The translations under genes were made by a program, and so were the position numbers. The notes under the pieces are model-generated. The model saw nothing but the letters and a program-made list of their open reading frames with translations, did no database searches and was not told where the DNA came from. From IMG/VR virus record IMGVR_UViG_3300014208_000027, positions 128,001-192,000 of that record: DNA of 64,000 nt; one strand, written 5' to 3'. This stretch comes from a virus. Taxonomy: Duplodnaviria > Caudoviricetes. This document shows, piece by piece, positions 3,633 through 64,000 of this stretch (its first letter is position 1; each line of letters begins with the position of its first letter).

Positions 3633-3639
3633 TAAATAG
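3633..3639 (-). promoter_or_regulatory. Putative late promoter CTATTTA
   Basis: Recurrent CTANTTA motif upstream of ATG 3610, followed by GAGGA. Confidence 0.5.
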
Positions 3640-3647
3640 GTCGGAAA

Positions 3648-4364
3648 TTAGGAACGAGGCTTGATAGTCGCAATTAGATCCCAATTGATAGTTGTGGCAG
3701 CTTTTCCCGTTACTCTAAACAATAAATTTGTGCCACTACCAGTGATATCAGCATCCATAGCCGCTGTAGTTTCTATGTCGGAAAATGTTGTTTGAACGCT
3801 ACCTTGCAAATTAACATCCCCGGCTGATTGTCTATACGCACAAGCAAAGCGCCCATAAGCACACCGTTCTGTTCCTGCTATGTCTCTTCCTGTATATAAA
3901 CCTTCAACTAAATATAAAGTATTATCAGCAAGTGGATAAGATAAAATTGTTGTTATGTTAGAACCTGTAGTTTGAACAGTGGCGTACTGTAAAACTGTAT
4001 TAGCAACAGAACCACTATTGACGGTAACTGTTGGTAAATTTGCTGTCCCTGGGTCACCTGTTGGGCCAGTCACACCAGTTCCAGTAGGCCCGGTTGGCCC
4101 TATTACTGTAGAATCAGCGCCTGTTGGCCCTGTTGGACCAGTCACACCAGCTCCAGTAGGACCGGTTGGCCCTATTACTGTAGAATCAGCGCCCGTAGGA
4201 CCAGTAGGACCAGTCACACCAGCTCCAGTAGGACCGGTTGGACCTACAACTGTAGAATTAGCCCCTGTAGGGCCCGTAGCTCCAGTTGGGCCAATTGATG
4301 GGTAATGATGTTCTACAGGTGTTTCTGTTGGATCCCATTTATGCGGTATGGTTGGATTTGACAT
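3648..4364 (-). CDS. Collagen-like (Gly-Pro-Thr) fibre protein
   Basis: Interrupted GPT repeats followed by a ~130-aa globular C-terminal domain. Confidence 0.8.
4060..4290. repeat. 72-bp coding tandem repeat (24-aa collagen unit)
   Basis: gccctattactgtagaatcagcgcc at 4097 and 4169; unit [24 protein letters not shown]. Confidence 0.85.
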
Positions 4365-4369
4365 GAATA

Positions 4370-4377
4370 TAATTAGT
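4370..4377 (-). promoter_or_regulatory. Putative late promoter ACTAATTA, 5 nt before ATG 4364
   Basis: CTANTTA motif; no SD between it and the start. Confidence 0.55.
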
Positions 4378-4382
4378 TGTCA

Positions 4383-4411
4383 TTGACTTTCCATTTTCTC
4401 TCTGCTACACT
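4383..4411 (+). promoter_or_regulatory. Sigma70-type early promoter
   Basis: TTGACT-17 nt-TACACT with extended -10 TG; predicted +1 coincides with ATG 4418. Confidence 0.7.
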
Positions 4412-4417
4412 GATTTT

Positions 4418-4639
4418 ATGTTCAACCTTGGTGATTTAATTTGTTTTAAGTCTTTAATCGGAGAGAATATTTATAGTGTTCCTTTGTCCTATGGATTTAT
4501 TAAAGCATATTTTACAAGTGAAATAACGGGTGAAGTTATAAAAGATGGATATTATGTTGAGTGGTTTCAAAACAAAGAGAAACTCCCAGGCTTAATTTTT
4601 CCAACTTTAATGGACATTAGTCCATATCATAAAATTTAA
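4418..4639 (+). CDS. Small hypothetical protein (FNLGDLI, SH3/KOW-like start)
   Basis: First ORF after the promoter. Confidence 0.6.
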   Translation: MFNLGDLICFKSLIGENIYSVPLSYGFIKAYFTSEITGEVIKDGYYVEWFQNKEKLPGLIFPTLMDISPYHKI

Positions 4640-4651
4640 AGGAGAATTTTT

Positions 4652-4900
4652 ATGCAAGTAAAGAAAAACATTAACATTTATTTTCTAGAATCAGAAGTGA
4701 AGGAGGCGTTACTTGATTATATGGTTAAAAATGGAATGAATGATGTCGCCGCTCATGCTTTTGAAAATTATTCAATGTTGGATTATACACCAGGGAGCAA
4801 TGAGGAAGATGAAGATGGAAATGTTGTTGAGGATGTTTATGTTTTATGTGTAGATGGTGAAATGGATGATGAAAGTTCTCCAGGGAAAGAAAAAAATTAA
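4652..4900 (+). CDS. Small acidic hypothetical protein
   Basis: AGGAG SD; tightly packed operon. Confidence 0.65.
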   Translation: MQVKKNINIYFLESEVKEALLDYMVKNGMNDVAAHAFENYSMLDYTPGSNEEDEDGNVVEDVYVLCVDGEMDDESSPGKEKN

Positions 4901-4901
4901 C

Positions 4902-5141
4902 ATGCGCAAACTCATTCCGAGAGATAAGTTTCTGAAAAGTAAACAAGGCGGATTCGCCTATATTACAGATGAGCTACTTAAAGAATATCACACAGAAGGA
5001 GAAATTAAAAATTTTGATAAGTGGATAACAGGTCAAACTTGCGCCTTAATTGATGGAAAATGTGCAATTTACTCGTGGGATTATGAGCGATGGGTTGGAC
5101 AAGGTAAAAAGACTGATCAAAACGTAGAAGATTGGGATTAG
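4902..5141 (+). CDS. Small hypothetical protein (start moved to ATG 4902)
   Basis: MRKLIPRDKF..., 1 nt after the upstream stop. Confidence 0.6.
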   Translation: MRKLIPRDKFLKSKQGGFAYITDELLKEYHTEGEIKNFDKWITGQTCALIDGKCAIYSWDYERWVGQGKKTDQNVEDWD

Positions 5142-5149
5142 GTACAAAA

Positions 5150-5407
5150 ATGGCAGAATTATCTAGACAAGAATATTATGAATGCATGGTGAAAAAGGAT
5201 ATGCAAAATTTACTTAATGCAAGAAACATTGAGGATAATACAAAAAGCATTGAGGCACTTGAAAGAGTAGTTTTGAGCTGTGCGGTTAGGTGGTACAATA
5301 TTCAAACAGACCAGTCTGTATCGTCGGGCGTGATTATGGAGTGTGAGAGAAATCTTCAGGCTGCAATTTTTAACCTTGCAACCAAAAACTGGCGATTTCC
5401 ATATTAA
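5150..5407 (+). CDS. Hypothetical protein, paralog A (MAELSRQEYY)
   Basis: Start moved to ATG 5150; aligns with 5488..5724. Confidence 0.65.
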   Translation: MAELSRQEYYECMVKKDMQNLLNARNIEDNTKSIEALERVVLSCAVRWYNIQTDQSVSSGVIMECERNLQAAIFNLATKNWRFPY

Positions 5408-5420
5408 AAGGAATTTAAAA

Positions 5421-5480
5421 ATGTGTAATTTTAATATTGGCGATAATGTTCAAATGAAGGATGTTGAAGATTGGGATTAG
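5421..5480 (+). pseudogene. Chimeric 19-aa mini-ORF at the duplication junction
   Basis: MCNFNIGDNVQMK (copy of the 5738 gene start) fused to DVEDWD* (copy of the 4902 gene end). Confidence 0.6.
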
Positions 5481-5487
5481 GCATAAA

Positions 5488-5724
5488 ATGACAGAACTTT
5501 CTAGACAAGAACATTATGAACTTTTGATGAAAAATGATATGAAAAATTTGTATAGTTCAAAATCCTCAGCCGATTTTGAGCGGGTTGTTTTAAGTTGTGT
5601 AGTTCGATGGTATAGCATAGAAGAAGAATTTTCTTCAAGATCTATATTGTTGCATCGAGCCAAAGAAAATCTTCGTGAAGCAGCTTTTATGCTTAAAAGC
5701 AATAATTGGCAAACTTCCTATTGA
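5488..5724 (+). CDS. Hypothetical protein, paralog B (MTELSRQEHY)
   Basis: Start moved to ATG 5488; shares ERVVLSCxVRWY with paralog A. Confidence 0.65.
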   Translation: MTELSRQEHYELLMKNDMKNLYSSKSSADFERVVLSCVVRWYSIEEEFSSRSILLHRAKENLREAAFMLKSNNWQTSY

Positions 5725-21139: not shown

Positions 21140-23455
21140 ATGCCTCCAAAGAATCATAATACTAGAAATCCGTTAGAACAATCTCATGATCTTTTTAAAC
21201 GCTTAACACGTCTTTTTAGTGGTCCACTAGTCTCATACAAAGCACAAGTTGAGAAGTCTCTTAGGCGTAAACAATTAGATAAGTATTCTCGTCAGCTAAA
21301 GACAACAGATGGTCAACATTTTAAGAAGCAACAATTTAATTTATATGATGCCTTGAGATCTGCTGCGTTTATGAATGTCCAAAGGCATCAACGTTATAAT
21401 GATTTTAATGAGATGGATACGGATGCTTATATCAGTTCTTGCCTAGACATATATTCTGATGAAATGTGTACGTACTCTAAGCTTCAACCAATGTTGACGA
21501 TTAACTGTGCAAATGAAGAAATTAAAGAAGTTTTAAAAGTTCTCTATAAAGATGTGCTAAATGTGGAATGTAATTTGCCTGGTTGGTGCAGGTCAATGTG
21601 TAAGTTTGGTGATTTTTTTATGTTTCTTGACATTGACGATTCTCTTGGAATTCAGCGTGGAATTGCATTACCACCTGGAGAAGTAGAGCGACTTGAAGGA
21701 GAAGATAAGTTAAACCCTGATTATGTTCAATTTCAGTTAAATACCGGAGGATTAACTCTTGAAAATTGGCAAGTTGCACATTTTAGAATCTTAGGTGTAG
21801 ACAAATATGCCCCATTTGGAGTAAGTGTGTTAGATGGTGGGAGAAGAACCTACAGACAGCTTTGTTATGCTAAGGGAACAAAAGTTTGGCTTCCAAATCT
21901 TGAAGAAAAAAATATTGAAGATATGAAAATTGGGGATGTTGTATTTTCTTTTGATCGTAGTATAAACCAAATAATTGAAACAAAAGTAAAAAATGTTGCA
22001 TTTATGGGGATACAAAAGGTAATTGAAATAAAAAGCGGGGAGATTACTTTAAAAGTTACTCCAAATCATGGAGTTTATGTTAGAAATAAAGATGATCAAA
22101 TTATTTGTAAAATGGCAAAAGACTTAATTTGCTTTGAAGATAAGTTGATTTGTCCTACTGAACTAAATGATTGCGATTGCGGTGATTGGAGTTATTATAG
22201 TTTCCAACTTGTAGAAGAAGTTGTTGACAATGGAGAATTTGTTGAAACTTATGATCTTGAAGTTGATCATGAATGTCACAACTTCACTGCTGATGGAGTA
22301 ATTGCTTCTAACACACTATTAGAAGATTCTATTATAGCTTATCGTATTGTTCGCGCACCTGAAAGAAAAGTTTTTTATCTTGACGTAGGTAATATCCCGC
22401 CACAAGATGTTGAAGTATTTATGCAGAAAGCTATGACGCAAATGAAACGTCACCAAATTGCTGATCCCACTACAGGTAGAGTAGACCTTCGCTATCAACC
22501 TATGAGTGTTGAGAATGATTATTTTCTTCCTGTGCGCGGTCAAGGTTCTGCTACTAGAATTGAGCCCCTACCAGGTGGTCAATTTGTTGGCGATATTGAT
22601 GATTTGAAATATATTAAAGATAAATTGTTTGCTGCCTTAAAGGTTCCTATTTCTTATATTTCTCGTGGCGAAGGCTCTAGTGAAGATCAAGGTTCTTTAA
22701 GTGTCAAAGATATCCGCTTTGCTCGCACTATTCAACGCCTACAGAAGTCAGTTATTGCAGAGTTAACTAAAATTGGTCTTGTGCATCTTTTTATTCTAGG
22801 TTACCGTAACGAAGATCTGCTATCATTTTCGCTAGCGTTGAATAATCCTTCGAAGATTGCAGAACTTCAAGAACTTGAACATTGGAAAACTAAATTTGAG
22901 GTTGCTGGCGCTGCTACGGAAAACTTCTTTTCTAGGCGTTGGATCGGTGAAAGAATTTTTAATCTTTCTGAAGAAGAGATGCTTCGTAATCAGCGTGAAA
23001 TGTATCAAGATCGATGGCTAGATTCACAATTAAATTCTATTTCTGAAGGTACTGAGTCTAGCTCTGGAGGTGGCGGTGGACTTGAGGGCTTATCTAGCCC
23101 CGATAACACACCTGACGCTGGTTTAGAGGGCACTGATGAAACTGGAGAGCCATCAGAACCACCTACTCTTCTAGCCGCTCCTGGTAAGCGTGACGAGCCT
23201 CATTTAACGCCTGGTTCAAAAGGTAAAGTTTATTTTCCTGAAGAGTTTGATAAGCGTGGTATGGGGGCTAGATCTGTTCATATGGATTCTTTAGGTGGCA
23301 CTATTTTACCAGGGCTTAAAAAAATGAAATCTCTTGGTAGAGGTATTGCTAATGAATCTTTAACATTGGAAGAAAGTAAACTTCATAACACTAGTTTTGA
23401 AATTAAACAATTATTAGAAAAGTTAGAAAGTAAAACAGACAAGAAGATTATTTAA
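21140..23455 (+). CDS. gp20: Portal protein (T4 gp20-like) containing an intein
   Basis: CKFGDFF, LEDSIIAYRIVRAPERKVFYLDVGNIP, DYFLPVRG, LPGGQ, DDLKY. Confidence 0.9.
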   Translation: MPPKNHNTRNPLEQSHDLFKRLTRLFSGPLVSYKAQVEKSLRRKQLDKYSRQLKTTDGQHFKKQQFNLYDALRSAAFMNVQRHQRYNDFNEMDTDAYISSCLDIYSDEMCTYSKLQPMLTINCANEEIKEVLKVLYKDVLNVECNLPGWCRSMCKFGDFFMFLDIDDSLGIQRGIALPPGEVERLEGEDKLNPDYVQFQLNTGGLTLENWQVAHFRILGVDKYAPFGVSVLDGGRRTYRQLCYAKGTKVWLPNLEEKNIEDMKIGDVVFSFDRSINQIIETKVKNVAFMGIQKVIEIKSGEITLKVTPNHGVYVRNKDDQIICKMAKDLICFEDKLICPTELNDCDCGDWSYYSFQLVEEVVDNGEFVETYDLEVDHECHNFTADGVIASNTLLEDSIIAYRIVRAPERKVFYLDVGNIPPQDVEVFMQKAMTQMKRHQIADPTTGRVDLRYQPMSVENDYFLPVRGQGSATRIEPLPGGQFVGDIDDLKYIKDKLFAALKVPISYISRGEGSSEDQGSLSVKDIRFARTIQRLQKSVIAELTKIGLVHLFILGYRNEDLLSFSLALNNPSKIAELQELEHWKTKFEVAGAATENFFSRRWIGERIFNLSEEEMLRNQREMYQDRWLDSQLNSISEGTESSSGGGGGLEGLSSPDNTPDAGLEGTDETGEPSEPPTLLAAPGKRDEPHLTPGSKGKVYFPEEFDKRGMGARSVHMDSLGGTILPGLKKMKSLGRGIANESLTLEESKLHNTSFEIKQLLEKLESKTDKKII
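21863..22312 (+). mobile_element. Cis mini-intein (150 aa) in the portal
   Basis: CYAKGTKV (block A), VTPNHGV (block B), TYDLEV...HNFTADGVIASN (blocks F/G), Thr at +1; removal restores RRTYRQL-TLLED. Confidence 0.9.
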
Positions 23456-61446: not shown

Positions 61447-62250
61447 ATGGCTTTAAATTTAGAAAAGATTCAAGAACGTCTTAATCGTCTTAACTCTAAG
61501 GGAAGGAATAATAATTCTTTTTGGAAGGTTCCTGAAGGCGAAAGTGTAATTCGTATTCCACCTATGCCTGATGGTGATCCATTTGTCGAGCATCATTTAC
61601 ATTATAATGTTGGTAAGGCTGTAGGGTTTGTTTGTCTTAGACGAGAATATAATAAACCTTGCCCTGTGTGTGCACTTGTGAATAAACTTTATAAGTCTGA
61701 TAATGCTGAAGATGTTGTATTAGCAAAGAAGTTAACTGCTAAGGCAAGATTTTATTCTCCTGTTCTAGTACGAGGGGAAGAAGAGAAGGGTGTTAGGTGG
61801 TGGAGTTATGCTAAGACTCCTTATGCTAAGCTGCTTAAATGGGCTAGCAATCAAGAAGAGTATGGAGATATCACGGATTCTAAACATGGTACTGATATTG
61901 AATTAGTTAACAAGAAGCCACCAGGTGGTGAGTTTTTTGTTACTGATATCGAGTTAAAGCGTAAGGAAAGTGATTTCTGCAAGGGTATGGAAGAAGGGAA
62001 GTGCAAGGAATTATTAGAAAATATTCCTGAACTTATGATTGATAAAAAGACTGCTGAAGAAATACAAGTTCTACTTGACGAGTGGCTACTAGGAGACGAA
62101 GAAGAAACTGTTGAAAGTGCTGAGGAAGGTGGTGAAGTAGAGAAATTTGGTGTAGGTAAAGAAAAGAAATCTTCTCCTGCTAAGGCTGATAAAGAAATGA
62201 GCGAAATTGACAAGAAGTTTGCCGAGCTAACTACTGAGGATGATGAATAA
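61447..62250 (+). CDS. Single-stranded DNA-binding protein (T4 gp32-like)
   Basis: FWKVPEGESVIRIPP, HHLHY...C...CPVC Zn site, RFYSPVLVRG, acidic tail. Confidence 0.75.
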   Translation: MALNLEKIQERLNRLNSKGRNNNSFWKVPEGESVIRIPPMPDGDPFVEHHLHYNVGKAVGFVCLRREYNKPCPVCALVNKLYKSDNAEDVVLAKKLTAKARFYSPVLVRGEEEKGVRWWSYAKTPYAKLLKWASNQEEYGDITDSKHGTDIELVNKKPPGGEFFVTDIELKRKESDFCKGMEEGKCKELLENIPELMIDKKTAEEIQVLLDEWLLGDEEETVESAEEGGEVEKFGVGKEKKSSPAKADKEMSEIDKKFAELTTEDDE

Positions 62251-62579
62251 TGGCGCCGCCTAAGAAAGAAAAAGAAGGCGAGGAGAAGAAAAAGAATAAG
62301 TTTAAACTTGATGGGCTTTCGACTGATATGTCTAACGCTGAAAGAATGGAAACACTTAGAAATATCTTAAATAAGAGTGCTGGAAGCAAGGTGGCTTATA
62401 ATTTAGAAGAAGAAAATCCTACCAAGGTAAAGCAATGGATTTCTACAGGAAGCTATCTTTTAGATAGAATTATTTGCAAGGGGATGGTGGGCGGAATTCC
62501 AATGGGGAAGATAGTGGAAATGTCTGGGTTAGAAGCGTGTGTTACAGAGGATACAGAGGTTGACATAGAAGTAGAATAA
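62250..62579 (+). CDS. recA: RecA/UvsX N-terminal half fused to a 13-aa split-intein N-fragment
   Basis: WISTGSYLLD..I...GGIPMGKIVEMSGLEA stops mid-Walker A, followed by CVTEDTEVDIEVE*. Confidence 0.85.
   Translation: MAPPKKEKEGEEKKKNKFKLDGLSTDMSNAERMETLRNILNKSAGSKVAYNLEEENPTKVKQWISTGSYLLDRIICKGMVGGIPMGKIVEMSGLEACVTEDTEVDIEVE
62538..62576 (+). mobile_element. Split intein N-fragment (13 aa)
   Basis: Block A pattern C-x-x-x-D-T-x-V. Confidence 0.8.
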
Positions 62580-62585
62580 GGGTGG

Positions 62586-62627
62586 TCTCCTACTAATTAG
62601 TATAAGTTACTCTGTGATAGTAGGAGA
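62586..62627 (+). promoter_or_regulatory. SD-sequestering hairpin containing a late promoter
   Basis: TCTCCTACTA (62586-62595) / TAGTAGGAGA (62618-62627); ACTAATTA at 62592-62599. Confidence 0.75.
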
Positions 62628-62634
62628 TTTATCA

Positions 62635-63759
62635 ATGACATTCGTTAGTTCTATCTCGGAAGAGACACTAAAACAAATTGCGGACCTTATTGTGGATGGC
62701 TATGGAAACAAGTATATTTTTGAACAATTTAATTTTGCGTTTTCTCACAAAGTGATTTATAGAGCTGCAAAAAAATTTGGTGTCTATGAACGATTAAAAG
62801 AAAATAACAAAAAAACGAAATCTTTTGCTATTAAGGATCGAGTAAAGAATTCTGCTTACGAAAGATATGTTGAGTTTGATGCGAAATACGGTGAAGACGT
62901 TAAAAGAATGATAAATGACGGATTTCATATGAGCAAAATCTTAGTAGAGCTTGATCTTTGGCAGTCTTTTTTTACGAAATATTTAAAATGGAAAGATGCC
63001 GATGGGGGTTTGAAAAATCAGTTGTCAATCAACTCTGAGAGAGTTATTCGCGAAAATGGGTTGCGTAACATACAGTGGATAAAAGAAAATGTCGTTCCTT
63101 GGAATAAGAAAACAATTACTAACGACATTGCTCTTTACTACAAAGAACTGGTTGAGAATGGGCTGTATAGAGCACAAATCACTCGGTCTATGAAAAAAAT
63201 ATATGATATTGGGCCAAAAAAAGTTGCTGAGATTATAAAAACATATGGGAAACCAAACGTTAAGTGTGATGGCAAAGGGAAAAATAATCCAGCTTATGGA
63301 AAGACATACATAAAAGGCGGAAGAGGAATTGTTGGTTTTATTTTGGCGAGCGGGAAGAAAATTTACTTCAGAAGTTCATTAGAGATGAAAATATATTTTT
63401 ATTTACTTGAAAATGATGTTGCGTTTTCGCTTTCAAAACATTCAATAGAATATGAATTTGATGGGGCGAAGCGGACATATAACCCAGACATCGTAATTAG
63501 TGATGTGATTTATGAAATTAAACCCAGAAAATTGGTTTCTTTAAGAATCAATGTAGAGAAATTTAATGCACTAAAAAAATATTGTGAAAAGTTTAGCTTA
63601 AAATGCGATCATATTTTTGAGGATACATTTAACTGTAGTTTTATTGATTTAGATTATGTAGAACAAAAAATAAAGGACGGAATTTTGCTTTTAGACCAAA
63701 AACAAGAAGAGAGATTGAAGAGGATTATGAAATATGAGAGTAAAAATATCAAAAATTAA
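62635..63759 (+). CDS. Free-standing PD-(D/E)XK (TnsA-like) endonuclease inside the fractured recA (start moved to ATG 62635)
   Basis: GKNNPAYGK (NUMOD-like), YFRSSLE, RTYNPDIV...YEIKP; AGGAG SD. Confidence 0.75.
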   Translation: MTFVSSISEETLKQIADLIVDGYGNKYIFEQFNFAFSHKVIYRAAKKFGVYERLKENNKKTKSFAIKDRVKNSAYERYVEFDAKYGEDVKRMINDGFHMSKILVELDLWQSFFTKYLKWKDADGGLKNQLSINSERVIRENGLRNIQWIKENVVPWNKKTITNDIALYYKELVENGLYRAQITRSMKKIYDIGPKKVAEIIKTYGKPNVKCDGKGKNNPAYGKTYIKGGRGIVGFILASGKKIYFRSSLEMKIYFYLLENDVAFSLSKHSIEYEFDGAKRTYNPDIVISDVIYEIKPRKLVSLRINVEKFNALKKYCEKFSLKCDHIFEDTFNCSFIDLDYVEQKIKDGILLLDQKQEERLKRIMKYESKNIKN

Positions 63760-64000
63760 AGAATTGTTGTCTTCTGGAAAGAAAGTTAGAATCAAGAGTG
63801 TGGATGGGAGATTTGTAAGCGTTGGAAAATACATAGAAAAAGGAATCAAGGATACATACTGTGTTTTATTGCAGAACGGACTCTCCATTAAGGTATCGAA
63901 TCATCATAAATTTTTTTCTAACTCAGGTTGGTTAGAAACTAGACATTTAATTCCAGGAGAAACTAAACTCTTGTGTGATGATGGAAATTATTATGTCGTT
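63734..64000 (+). CDS. Split intein C-fragment (presumably fused to the RecA C-terminal half); runs off the window; not in ORF track
   Basis: GAGGA SD; MRVKISKIKELL...VRIKSVDG...EKGIKDTYCV...IKVSNHHKFF..SGWLETRHL (block B and downstream Hint motifs); open to position 64000. Confidence 0.8.
   Translation, partial: MRVKISKIKELLSSGKKVRIKSVDGRFVSVGKYIEKGIKDTYCVLLQNGLSIKVSNHHKFFSNSGWLETRHLIPGETKLLCDDGNYYVV

Follow-up and report, generated by a model that had tools for sequence, protein, structure and literature searches.

Organisation of the split uvsX locus

We analysed a 64,000-nt stretch of viral DNA (hereafter the window), which corresponds to bases 128001-192000 of the IMG/VR record IMGVR_UViG_3300014208_000027, a 203,498-bp phage genome from groundwater metagenomes that is rated as complete by CheckV. 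At the 3' end of the window the gene of a UvsX/RecA-type recombinase (uvsX) is broken inside the Walker A motif by an intein that is itself in two pieces, with a further gene lying between them (Table 1). The first open reading frame (N-ORF, 62250-62579) encodes 109 amino acids (aa), namely a 96-aa N-extein ending in ...MGKIVEMSGLEA, with the first half of Walker A, and, directly after it, Cys1 (...SGLEA/C, where the slash marks the splice junction here and below) and the rest of the 13-residue N-intein CVTEDTEVDIEVE, which is followed by a TAA stop codon. The second one (C-ORF, 404 aa) is preceded by a Shine-Dalgarno (SD) sequence in the arrangement GAGGA-N9-ATG; since only its first 89 codons fall in the window, the remainder was read on the copy of the genome that continues past the window end (locus L001). 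It begins with a 121-aa C-intein, ending in ...GNGILNHN/SGKSYIAMQ..., and continues with the UvsX C-extein from Ser+1. The two precursors are translated separately (TAA after codon 13, SD-led ATG), and the same holds for all the split relatives described below.

Part of this organisation had been noticed in a previous reading made from the letters alone (the sequence-only reading). It had described a RecA ORF broken in Walker A at SGLEA/ and continuing for only 13 residues before a stop, and an SD-led ORF at ATG 63734, with the motifs KVSNHHKFF and GWLETRHL, as the remainder of a Hint domain. Both statements hold: the N-ORF has exactly this structure, the C-ORF contains the two motifs, and Hint/intein profiles match residues 1-121 of the C-precursor. 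The intein end and the C-terminal half of RecA, which that reading had proposed to look for beyond position 64000, are also present. Precisely, the Pfam RecA profile matches the two pieces colinearly, with positions 10-63 in the N-ORF and then 62-254 in the C-ORF (E 4.6e-22), and so does PHROG 97 (UvsX-like recombinase), with positions 11-82 and then 83-315.

When the 13 + 121 intein residues are removed, a 379-aa UvsX with the Walker A motif GLEASGKS is obtained. The joined exteins are 80% identical in protein sequence to P0004, an intein-free protein of 377 aa in which the site reads GLNSVGKS (GLNS-VGKS) and which, in a protein search with the 404-aa ORF, was 83% identical across the aligned extein. 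P0004 lies on the Logan contig L051, where uvsX is accompanied by a 176-aa ORF and by genes for a 5'-3' exonuclease, a DnaB-like helicase and ribonucleotide reductase, in the same gene order as here; L051 is hence a natural "empty site" allele of uvsX.

The residues expected for splicing are in place. Cys1 is kept in all the split and contiguous relatives, and the C-intein has S55-x-x-H58 (the S/TxxH of block B), D102 (block F), H120-N121 and S122 (+1). In 16 of the 16 aligned family sequences H58, D102, H120 and N121 are invariant, and the +1 residue is either Ser or Thr.

Table 1. Features of the split uvsX locus and of the genes mentioned in the text. Positions are those of the window and of its continuation in the genome. 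MFE, minimum free energy.
Feature	Position	Strand	Evidence
UvsX/RecA N-extein, 96 aa, Walker A first half	62250..62537	+	Pfam RecA; PHROG 97; alignment with intein-free P0004
N-intein, 13 codons and TAA	62538..62579	+	aligned to residues 1-13 of contiguous homologues; Hint beta1 and beta2
RNA hairpin, 3' arm with the AGGAG Shine-Dalgarno of the nuclease ORF, CTAATTA in the loop	62581..62633	+	MFE -18.3 kcal/mol, z -2.16
Free-standing endonuclease gene (predicted), 374 aa from ATG 62635 (381 aa from GTG 62614)	62635..63759	+	synteny, motifs, profiles, structure
C-precursor ORF, 404 aa, ATG 63734, first 89 codons in the window	63734..64000 (window part)	+	genome copy past the window end (L001)
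C-intein, 121 aa	63734..64096	+	Hint/intein profiles
UvsX C-extein, 283 aa from Ser+1	64097..64945 (stop 64946-64948)	+	Pfam RecA; PHROG 97
gp32-like ssDNA-binding protein gene	61447..62250	+	Pfam gp32 E 3e-12; ORF list
T4-type portal gene	21140..23455	+	Pfam Portal_T4 E 1.5e-65
Contiguous mini-intein of the portal gene, ~150 aa	~21860..22312

Position of the break in the intein fold

The contiguous homologues inserted at the same site have inteins of 133-139 aa, as against 13 + 121 = 134 aa here, and because 134 aa lies within this range no part of the fold is missing. The Hint fold was assessed on one of the contiguous homologues, P0017. In the AlphaFold2 (AF2) model of P0017 (predicted local distance difference test, pLDDT, 95.1), beta1 spans residues 2-3, beta2 residues 7-13, the turn residues 14-17 and beta3 residues 18-23. 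In the alignment the N-fragment stops, with E13, exactly at the end of beta2, and M1 of the C-fragment corresponds to residue 20, which already falls within beta3. The break is in the beta2/beta3 hairpin, that is, at the published S1 split site, which has been described for the VidaL and PolB16 OarG inteins (PMC13014065). The best Foldseek matches of the P0017 model were inteins, with VidaL in the first position (template modelling score, TM, 0.90; root mean square deviation, rmsd, 1.7 A).

Split and contiguous relatives

The protein search with the 404-aa ORF returned, besides the intein-free allele, about 12 proteins made of a C-intein and a UvsX C-terminal part and three contiguous proteins (512-533 aa). 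The loci that we compared were taken from viral contigs, metagenomes and the contigs encoding these proteins. The same split was found in at least 13 phage lineages, whose C-inteins are only 45-60% identical, and in each of them the N-ORF ends at a stop codon of its own and the C-ORF has a separate start. The N-fragment is 13 aa long in the window (L001), L004-6, L008, L009/10, L011 and L063, and 14 aa long in L002, L007, L052, L054, L068 and L070/71; it follows the pattern C-V-T/S-E/D-D-T-x-[IV]-x-[IV]-x-[IV]-acidic. In L003, L012/13, L060, L066, P0014 and P0017 the intein is contiguous.

The shortest N-fragment of the family is not that of the window. In L055 (coverage 2), positions 439-535 contain an 11-aa N-fragment, CVTEDTLVEIE, a double stop (TAG TAA) and, 59 nt downstream, an SD-led GTG start (GGAAGGA-N4-GTG); the genetic code is the standard one in this locus (277 codons, 0 in-frame TAG). 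Near position 1360 the same uvsX ORF of L055 ends with ...ADPY/CVCPLTTKIKI, followed by TGA TAG. This looks like a second 11-aa N-intein at a second uvsX site, in which case the gene may be in three pieces. In L012 (and L013) a 679-aa uvsX ORF (3635-5671) carries two contiguous inteins, one in the P-loop and one at ...GYGDKF/CVDPFTT...GRNNHN/TTSGGKAL, and therefore at least two intein insertion sites exist in uvsX. The same type of intein was also seen before SGKSW...YYTLEM of another gene, which we read by eye as the P-loop of a DnaB-like helicase, in L065, where it is split (N-fragment 22 aa, gap ~570 nt), and in L072, where it is contiguous.

The content of the gap between the two halves varies. 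A homologue of the gap ORF, ~355-375 aa in length, is present in six lineages, and in L004-6 there is only a remnant of 138-150 aa that corresponds to the nuclease domain. No nuclease gene is present in the gap of L008, L011, L055, L063, L068 and L070/71, all of which are still split and have intact catalytic residues. These gaps measure 59 nt in L055, 157 nt in L011 (GC 18.5%), 212 nt in L008 and ~230 nt in L063, and the Cys codon of the N-intein precedes the C-intein match by 194 nt in L068 and by 77 nt in L070/71. That the split outlives the nuclease gene, with the catalytic residues intact, speaks more strongly than any other observation for a working split pair.

In the tree of the inteins the backbone was not resolved, and the split L009 grouped with the contiguous L012 (100/100) and the contiguous P0013 with L001 and P0005 (90/79); because of these two groupings we consider the split and contiguous states as interleaved. 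The sister pair L009 (split) and L012 (contiguous) was uninformative on the boundaries of the cassette, with flanks 68-70% identical. A protein search with the 109-aa N-ORF for further N-precursors returned the query alone, and no members of the sub-family were found in a collection of 50,697 phage records.

The gene between the two halves

The gap ORF is separated from the N-ORF by a spacer of 55 nt and overlaps the start of the C-ORF by 26 nt. Its product is composed of a helical N-terminal part (~205 aa), a NUMOD3-like NPxYGK motif and a C-terminal TnsA-like PD-(D/E)xK domain, and the AF2 model (pLDDT 92.7) has the same layout, with helices up to about residue 205 and then an alpha/beta domain. 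The residues E250, P284-D285 and E294-x-K296 are invariant in 34 of 34 sequences, in agreement with the motifs RSSLE, PD and EIKP, which are invariant among the homologues. Syntenic homologues occur in L002, L007, L009, L052 and L054; the relatives found in gaps are 31-38% identical (51% for the L004 remnant).

A profile search against 1.84 billion representatives yielded 2,503 relatives of the gap ORF at E <= 0.001, 63 of them at E <= 1e-30, and the longer ones differ only by additional N-terminal helical repeats. In two relatives the Pfam TnsA-like N family was at the cutoff, with Phage_endo_I and NUMOD3 weaker, and phrog_15427 ("endonuclease") matches the gap ORF itself (E 1.6e-10). In the Foldseek search of the model, TnsA (1t0f) ranked first (E 1.5e-3, prob 1.00, rmsd 2.9 A over 131 columns), followed by the catalytic domain of I-Bth0305I (3r3p; E 0.017). 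On the basis of these motifs, profiles and models, the gap protein is predicted to be a PD-(D/E)xK nuclease whose DNA-binding part is modular, an architecture that would suit a homing endonuclease. The gene does not belong to the Vsr-like (I-Bth0305I) family, as its motif is E...PD...ExK and 3r3p is matched only at the E-value given above.

Most likely, the gap gene is a homing endonuclease gene whose product carries the cassette into uvsX alleles without it. We favour this function because of the patterns of presence, absence and remnants among the relatives and because of the DNA divergence at the insertion site. In fact, the DNA identity to the empty allele is 74% overall, and it falls to 62% in the 60-nt bin of the insertion site, with 82-85% in the neighbouring bins. 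This is what divergence of a target site would look like, and it is not a proof of it.

The spacer before the nuclease ORF can form a hairpin that holds the SD sequence of this ORF in its 3' arm (Table 1). A similar hairpin is present in L052, although not in all the loci, and CTAWTTA or ATATTTA was found in the spacer before the nuclease ORF of the five other lineages examined. In a scan around the locus the CTAWTTA motif was not significantly enriched (4 occurrences vs 2.0 expected). The hairpin may have a regulatory role, and it resembles the delayed-translation control of the intron endonucleases of T4.

Charge and association of the fragments

The sequence-only reading had reported that the two fragments are complementary in charge, with 6 acidic and 0 basic residues in the N-fragment and 8 basic and 1 acidic residues in the first 22 residues of the C-fragment, and our recount gave the same values. 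Among ten lineages with the standard code, the net charge ranges from -1 to -6 in the N-fragment and from 0 to +7 in the first 22 residues of the C-intein, and the two are anticorrelated (r = -0.71 with n = 9, r = -0.69 with n = 10; kinship uncorrected). L063, which belongs to the TAG-recoded relatives described below, has a basic N-fragment (CVTEDTKVKIKIK).

When residues 70-109 of the N-precursor were modelled together with residues 1-140 of the C-precursor, the predicted complex scored 0.58, as against 0.01 for the best control. This value falls in the band graded as weak, and in the docking benchmark the 0.58 mark was attained by 51 of the 78 solved complexes and by 2 of the 108 mismatched pairs. 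The contact agreement of the docking runs was at least 68% and the pLDDT of the partner at least 47. The result is compatible with binding of the fragments and is not a proof of it.

Comparison with known split inteins

Canonical split inteins have N-fragments of ~100 aa, and Gp41-1, NrdJ-1 and Gp41-8 are listed apart from the atypically split ones (PMC13014065). Among the latter, the N-fragments measure 25 aa in AceL TerL, 16 aa in VidaL and 15 aa in PolB16 OarG; the natural range is given as 15-37 aa, with 15 aa termed "record-short" and 11 aa reached only in the engineered M86 (PMC13014065, PMC10189870). The claim of the sequence-only reading that the window holds one of the shortest natural N-fragments is thus sustained, as 13 aa is slightly below this published range.

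The closest known structure is that of VidaL (PDB 6vgv/6vgw). Like the present family, VidaL is a Cys1/Ser+1 mini-intein split at S1, after beta2, and it sits directly before a P-loop SGK(S). The crystal construct ends in ...SHA-SGK, and the uvsX gene of phage PA5oct reads ...GESG/C...SSHN/SGKSY. By sequence, VidaL matches a contiguous member of the family at E 7.5e-12 and the C-intein of the window at E 0.003 (C-intein residues 2-121). It differs in that the identity is only ~26% and its N-fragment is of 16-17 aa, as against 13 aa in the window and 11-14 aa in the family. On these comparisons the family of the window is a sister sub-family of VidaL, placed outside the VidaL clade proper.

PA5oct is a cultured Pseudomonas jumbo phage whose uvsX split intein is unannotated. 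In its genome (L045; NC_071039.1, 132975-140955) the 82-aa gp276, labelled "hypothetical", consists of the N-extein and a 17-aa N-intein; the gap ORF is gp275 (478 aa, "hypothetical"); and gp274, the "UvsX-like recombinase" (flagged ESI-MS/MS), begins with a 128-aa C-intein that is matched by VidaL at E 4.7e-37. As here, the ORF between the intein halves is on the same strand. The polarity of charge is the opposite one, with a basic N-fragment (CLPETAKVKIRLSKKQS) and an acidic start of the C-intein in PA5oct versus acidic and basic, respectively, in the window. The gap proteins of the two phages are unrelated in sequence (BLASTP E 0.07), and that of PA5oct, which may be Vsr-like, had no Pfam, PHROG or PDB sequence match. 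Because of the SGK C-extein of the VidaL construct and of the match to PA5oct uvsX, the VidaL type itself would also be a UvsX P-loop intein split at S1.

A junction-peptide search of the PDB for VidaL's own N-fragment gave no match. The name "VidaL UvsX" presumably goes back to Thiel et al. 2014. Our literature search, which did not reach the original VidaL papers, found no paper on a uvsX split intein.

The layout of the locus recalls the fractured genes of Dassa, London, Stoddard, Schueler-Furman and Pietrokovski 2009 (PMC2677866; gp41-1, NrdJ-1, IMPDH-1 and others), in which a replication or repair gene is likewise divided into two ORFs on the same strand, with the halves of a split intein and a free-standing endonuclease gene between them. 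In that set, too, a relative (gp41-7) is without the endonuclease gene, as are the nuclease-free lineages described above. Unlike the present case, the endonucleases of that study are Vsr-like (I-Bth0305I family) and the only role of uvsX there is that of a neighbouring gene, whereas here the predicted nuclease is TnsA-like PD-(D/E)xK and the intein is split at S1. PolB16 OarG (PMC10189870) shares with the window the natural S1 split and an ultra-short N-fragment (15 aa, "the shortest characterized to date"), but it is cysteine-less, lies in a DNA polymerase and has an N-fragment two residues longer; its structure (8cpo) is also more distant (rank 50, TM 0.65).

Proposed mechanism and alternative explanations

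We regard it as highly probable that the locus is a fractured uvsX gene, with a class-1 mini-intein naturally split at S1 in Walker A, a free-standing nuclease gene between its halves, and restoration of the recombinase by trans-splicing. Directly observed are its anatomy and homologies, its conservation and where the break lies; association of the fragments, splicing and homing are inferred. The split uvsX intein is very probably functional, because the 13/14-aa arrangement and the catalytic residues are kept across many diverged lineages, including those without the nuclease gene. The pair of the window does not stand alone, since it belongs to a family that is homologous to VidaL and occupies the same UvsX P-loop site. 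The locus is a relative of a characterised ultra-short split intein and extends a known class, with no new mechanism.

The proposed course is the following. Two precursors would be translated, one of 109 aa (N-extein and acidic N-intein) and one of 404 aa (C-intein with a basic start and C-extein). The C-fragment would receive beta1 and beta2 from the 13-mer and thereby attain a full Hint fold, with charge attraction as a probable aid. Splicing would then proceed by an N-S acyl shift at Cys1, transesterification to Ser+1, cyclisation of Asn121 assisted by His120, and an O-N shift, and its product would be the 379-aa UvsX with an intact P-loop and the junction peptide IVEMSGLEASGK. The TnsA-like PD-(D/E)xK endonuclease, with its helical DNA-binding part, would act as the homing endonuclease of the cassette.

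Some points weigh against this explanation. The correlation of charge comprises only ~10 related lineages; the docking score is in the weak band, the fold of the partner is uncertain, and part of the score may stem from solved split inteins that the predictor had learned. The structural match between the gap ORF and TnsA is modest at the E-value reported above (TM 0.25-0.35, with one domain aligned). Finally, the sequencing runs that contain this stretch are DNA only, and no RNA run contains it.

The last point also agrees with the idea that a once contiguous intein was disrupted when the nuclease gene inserted, leaving uvsX as a non-functional remnant in two pieces, and the decay of the nuclease gene to 138-150 aa in L004-6 indicates that parts of the cassette can degenerate. 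We consider such a dead gene very unlikely, given that all four parts, the two exteins and the two intein pieces, are intact, that the catalytic residues are invariant across lineages only 45-60% identical, that the split is maintained in lineages that lost the nuclease gene, and that the C-ORF of each lineage comes with a ribosome-binding site and a start of its own. Moreover, this is the sole recombinase gene of a complete T4-like genome: with the RecA profile, only the two uvsX pieces were matched in the whole genome and no second recA/uvsX copy was detected.

Alternatively, the two halves could assemble through their intein fragments into a two-chain recombinase and remain unspliced. A precedent for assembly without ligation is a fragmented phage ribonucleotide reductase described in PMC3045599. 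For uvsX this is highly improbable, since the P-loop, where the break lies, has to form a single uninterrupted turn, and since the kept Cys1, block B His, block F Asp, His-Asn and +1 Ser/Thr imply that the splicing chemistry is under selection; furthermore, the homologous VidaL is described as a fast trans-splicer (PMC13014065).

Removal from the RNA of an intron that contains the nuclease ORF, or bypassing of the gap by the ribosome, so that one cis-intein messenger or protein results, would have a parallel in the group I introns with endonuclease ORFs in recA of Bacillus and its phage (PMC2677866), and yet it has a close to negligible probability, as no Rfam intron family matched at E <= 1 here or at E <= 0.1 in five related loci, the gaps of the nuclease-free relatives are short (59 to ~230 nt) and AT-rich (as in L011), and the stops after codon 13/14 and the SD-led C-ORF starts are conserved, with a double stop in L055. 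When a group I/II intron or another RNA element was searched for in the gap of L001, Rfam gave only a chance snoRNA match (E 0.48), and this candidate was rejected.

Beyond the trans-splicing explanation itself, we advance a broader proposal only tentatively, with somewhat less than an even chance that all its parts hold together. The sub-family would hold the shortest functional natural N-inteins (13-14 aa, possibly 11 aa) and may be orthogonal to VidaL, because its polarity of charge is reversed; the gap gene would represent an undescribed family of free-standing TnsA-like PD-(D/E)xK homing endonucleases; and the cassette would have entered or left the beta2/beta3 hairpin more than once. Ultra-short N-inteins are wanted in protein chemistry, in which a short synthetic piece can attach labels to proteins, and the locus and its relatives show that nature maintains N-fragments of 13-14 aa, and perhaps of 11 aa, at S1. 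The family offers many diverged natural variants together with contiguous relatives; its polarity, opposite to that of VidaL, points to a possible orthogonal pair, which, if it were orthogonal, would be a second ultra-short pair for peptide ligation. It also appears to document how a mobile nuclease gene fractures an essential recombinase gene and is later lost while the split stays.

Relatives with recoded TAG

Some of the relatives of the intein (L061, L063 and L065-L072, all metagenome contigs) come from phages in which TAG occurs in frame 15-29 times per 400 codons. At the positions aligned to TAG in the standard-code homologues, the enrichment of Glu was 3.4-fold in uvsX and, with 28 ORFs and 359 positions taken together, 2.9-fold, and Gln was not enriched (~1-fold). 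TAG falls on Glu columns that are 100% conserved, one of which we take to be that of the catalytic Glu of RecA. The BLOSUM log-odds on the same 359 positions (28 ORFs) were 98.5 for E, 24.9 for K and 19.8 for Q, with E in the first position in 7 of 7 loci, and the controls recovered the true residue. TAG thus appears to encode Glu in the phages of this sub-clade. For phages with a code unlike that of the host, the literature consulted describes only TAG-to-Gln and TGA-to-Trp (bioRxiv 10.1101/2021.08.26.457843; PMC11210395). A search for a suppressor tRNA in the fetched pieces of the recoded contigs, which are partial records, found no tRNA.

Genomic context

The locus is not an assembly artefact, because contigs from an independent groundwater study are identical to it (0 differences) across the end of the N-ORF, with its stop, and across the junction between the nuclease and the C-intein. 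The single "joint" that could have suggested such an artefact consisted of 18-nt matches to an unrelated contig. A scan for sigma-70 promoters and terminators between 61300 and 64000 gave nothing exceeding chance.

Upstream of uvsX there is the gp32-like gene, whose TAA overlaps the ATG of the N-ORF by 1 nt, and the order gp32-uvsX is also found in the related loci L052 and L054. Because of the presence of this gene and of a T4-type portal gene, the phage is assigned to the T4-like phages on gene content. The portal gene bears an intein too (...RRTYRQL/CYAKGTKVW...GVIASN/TLLED), which is contiguous and is a second intein in the genome.

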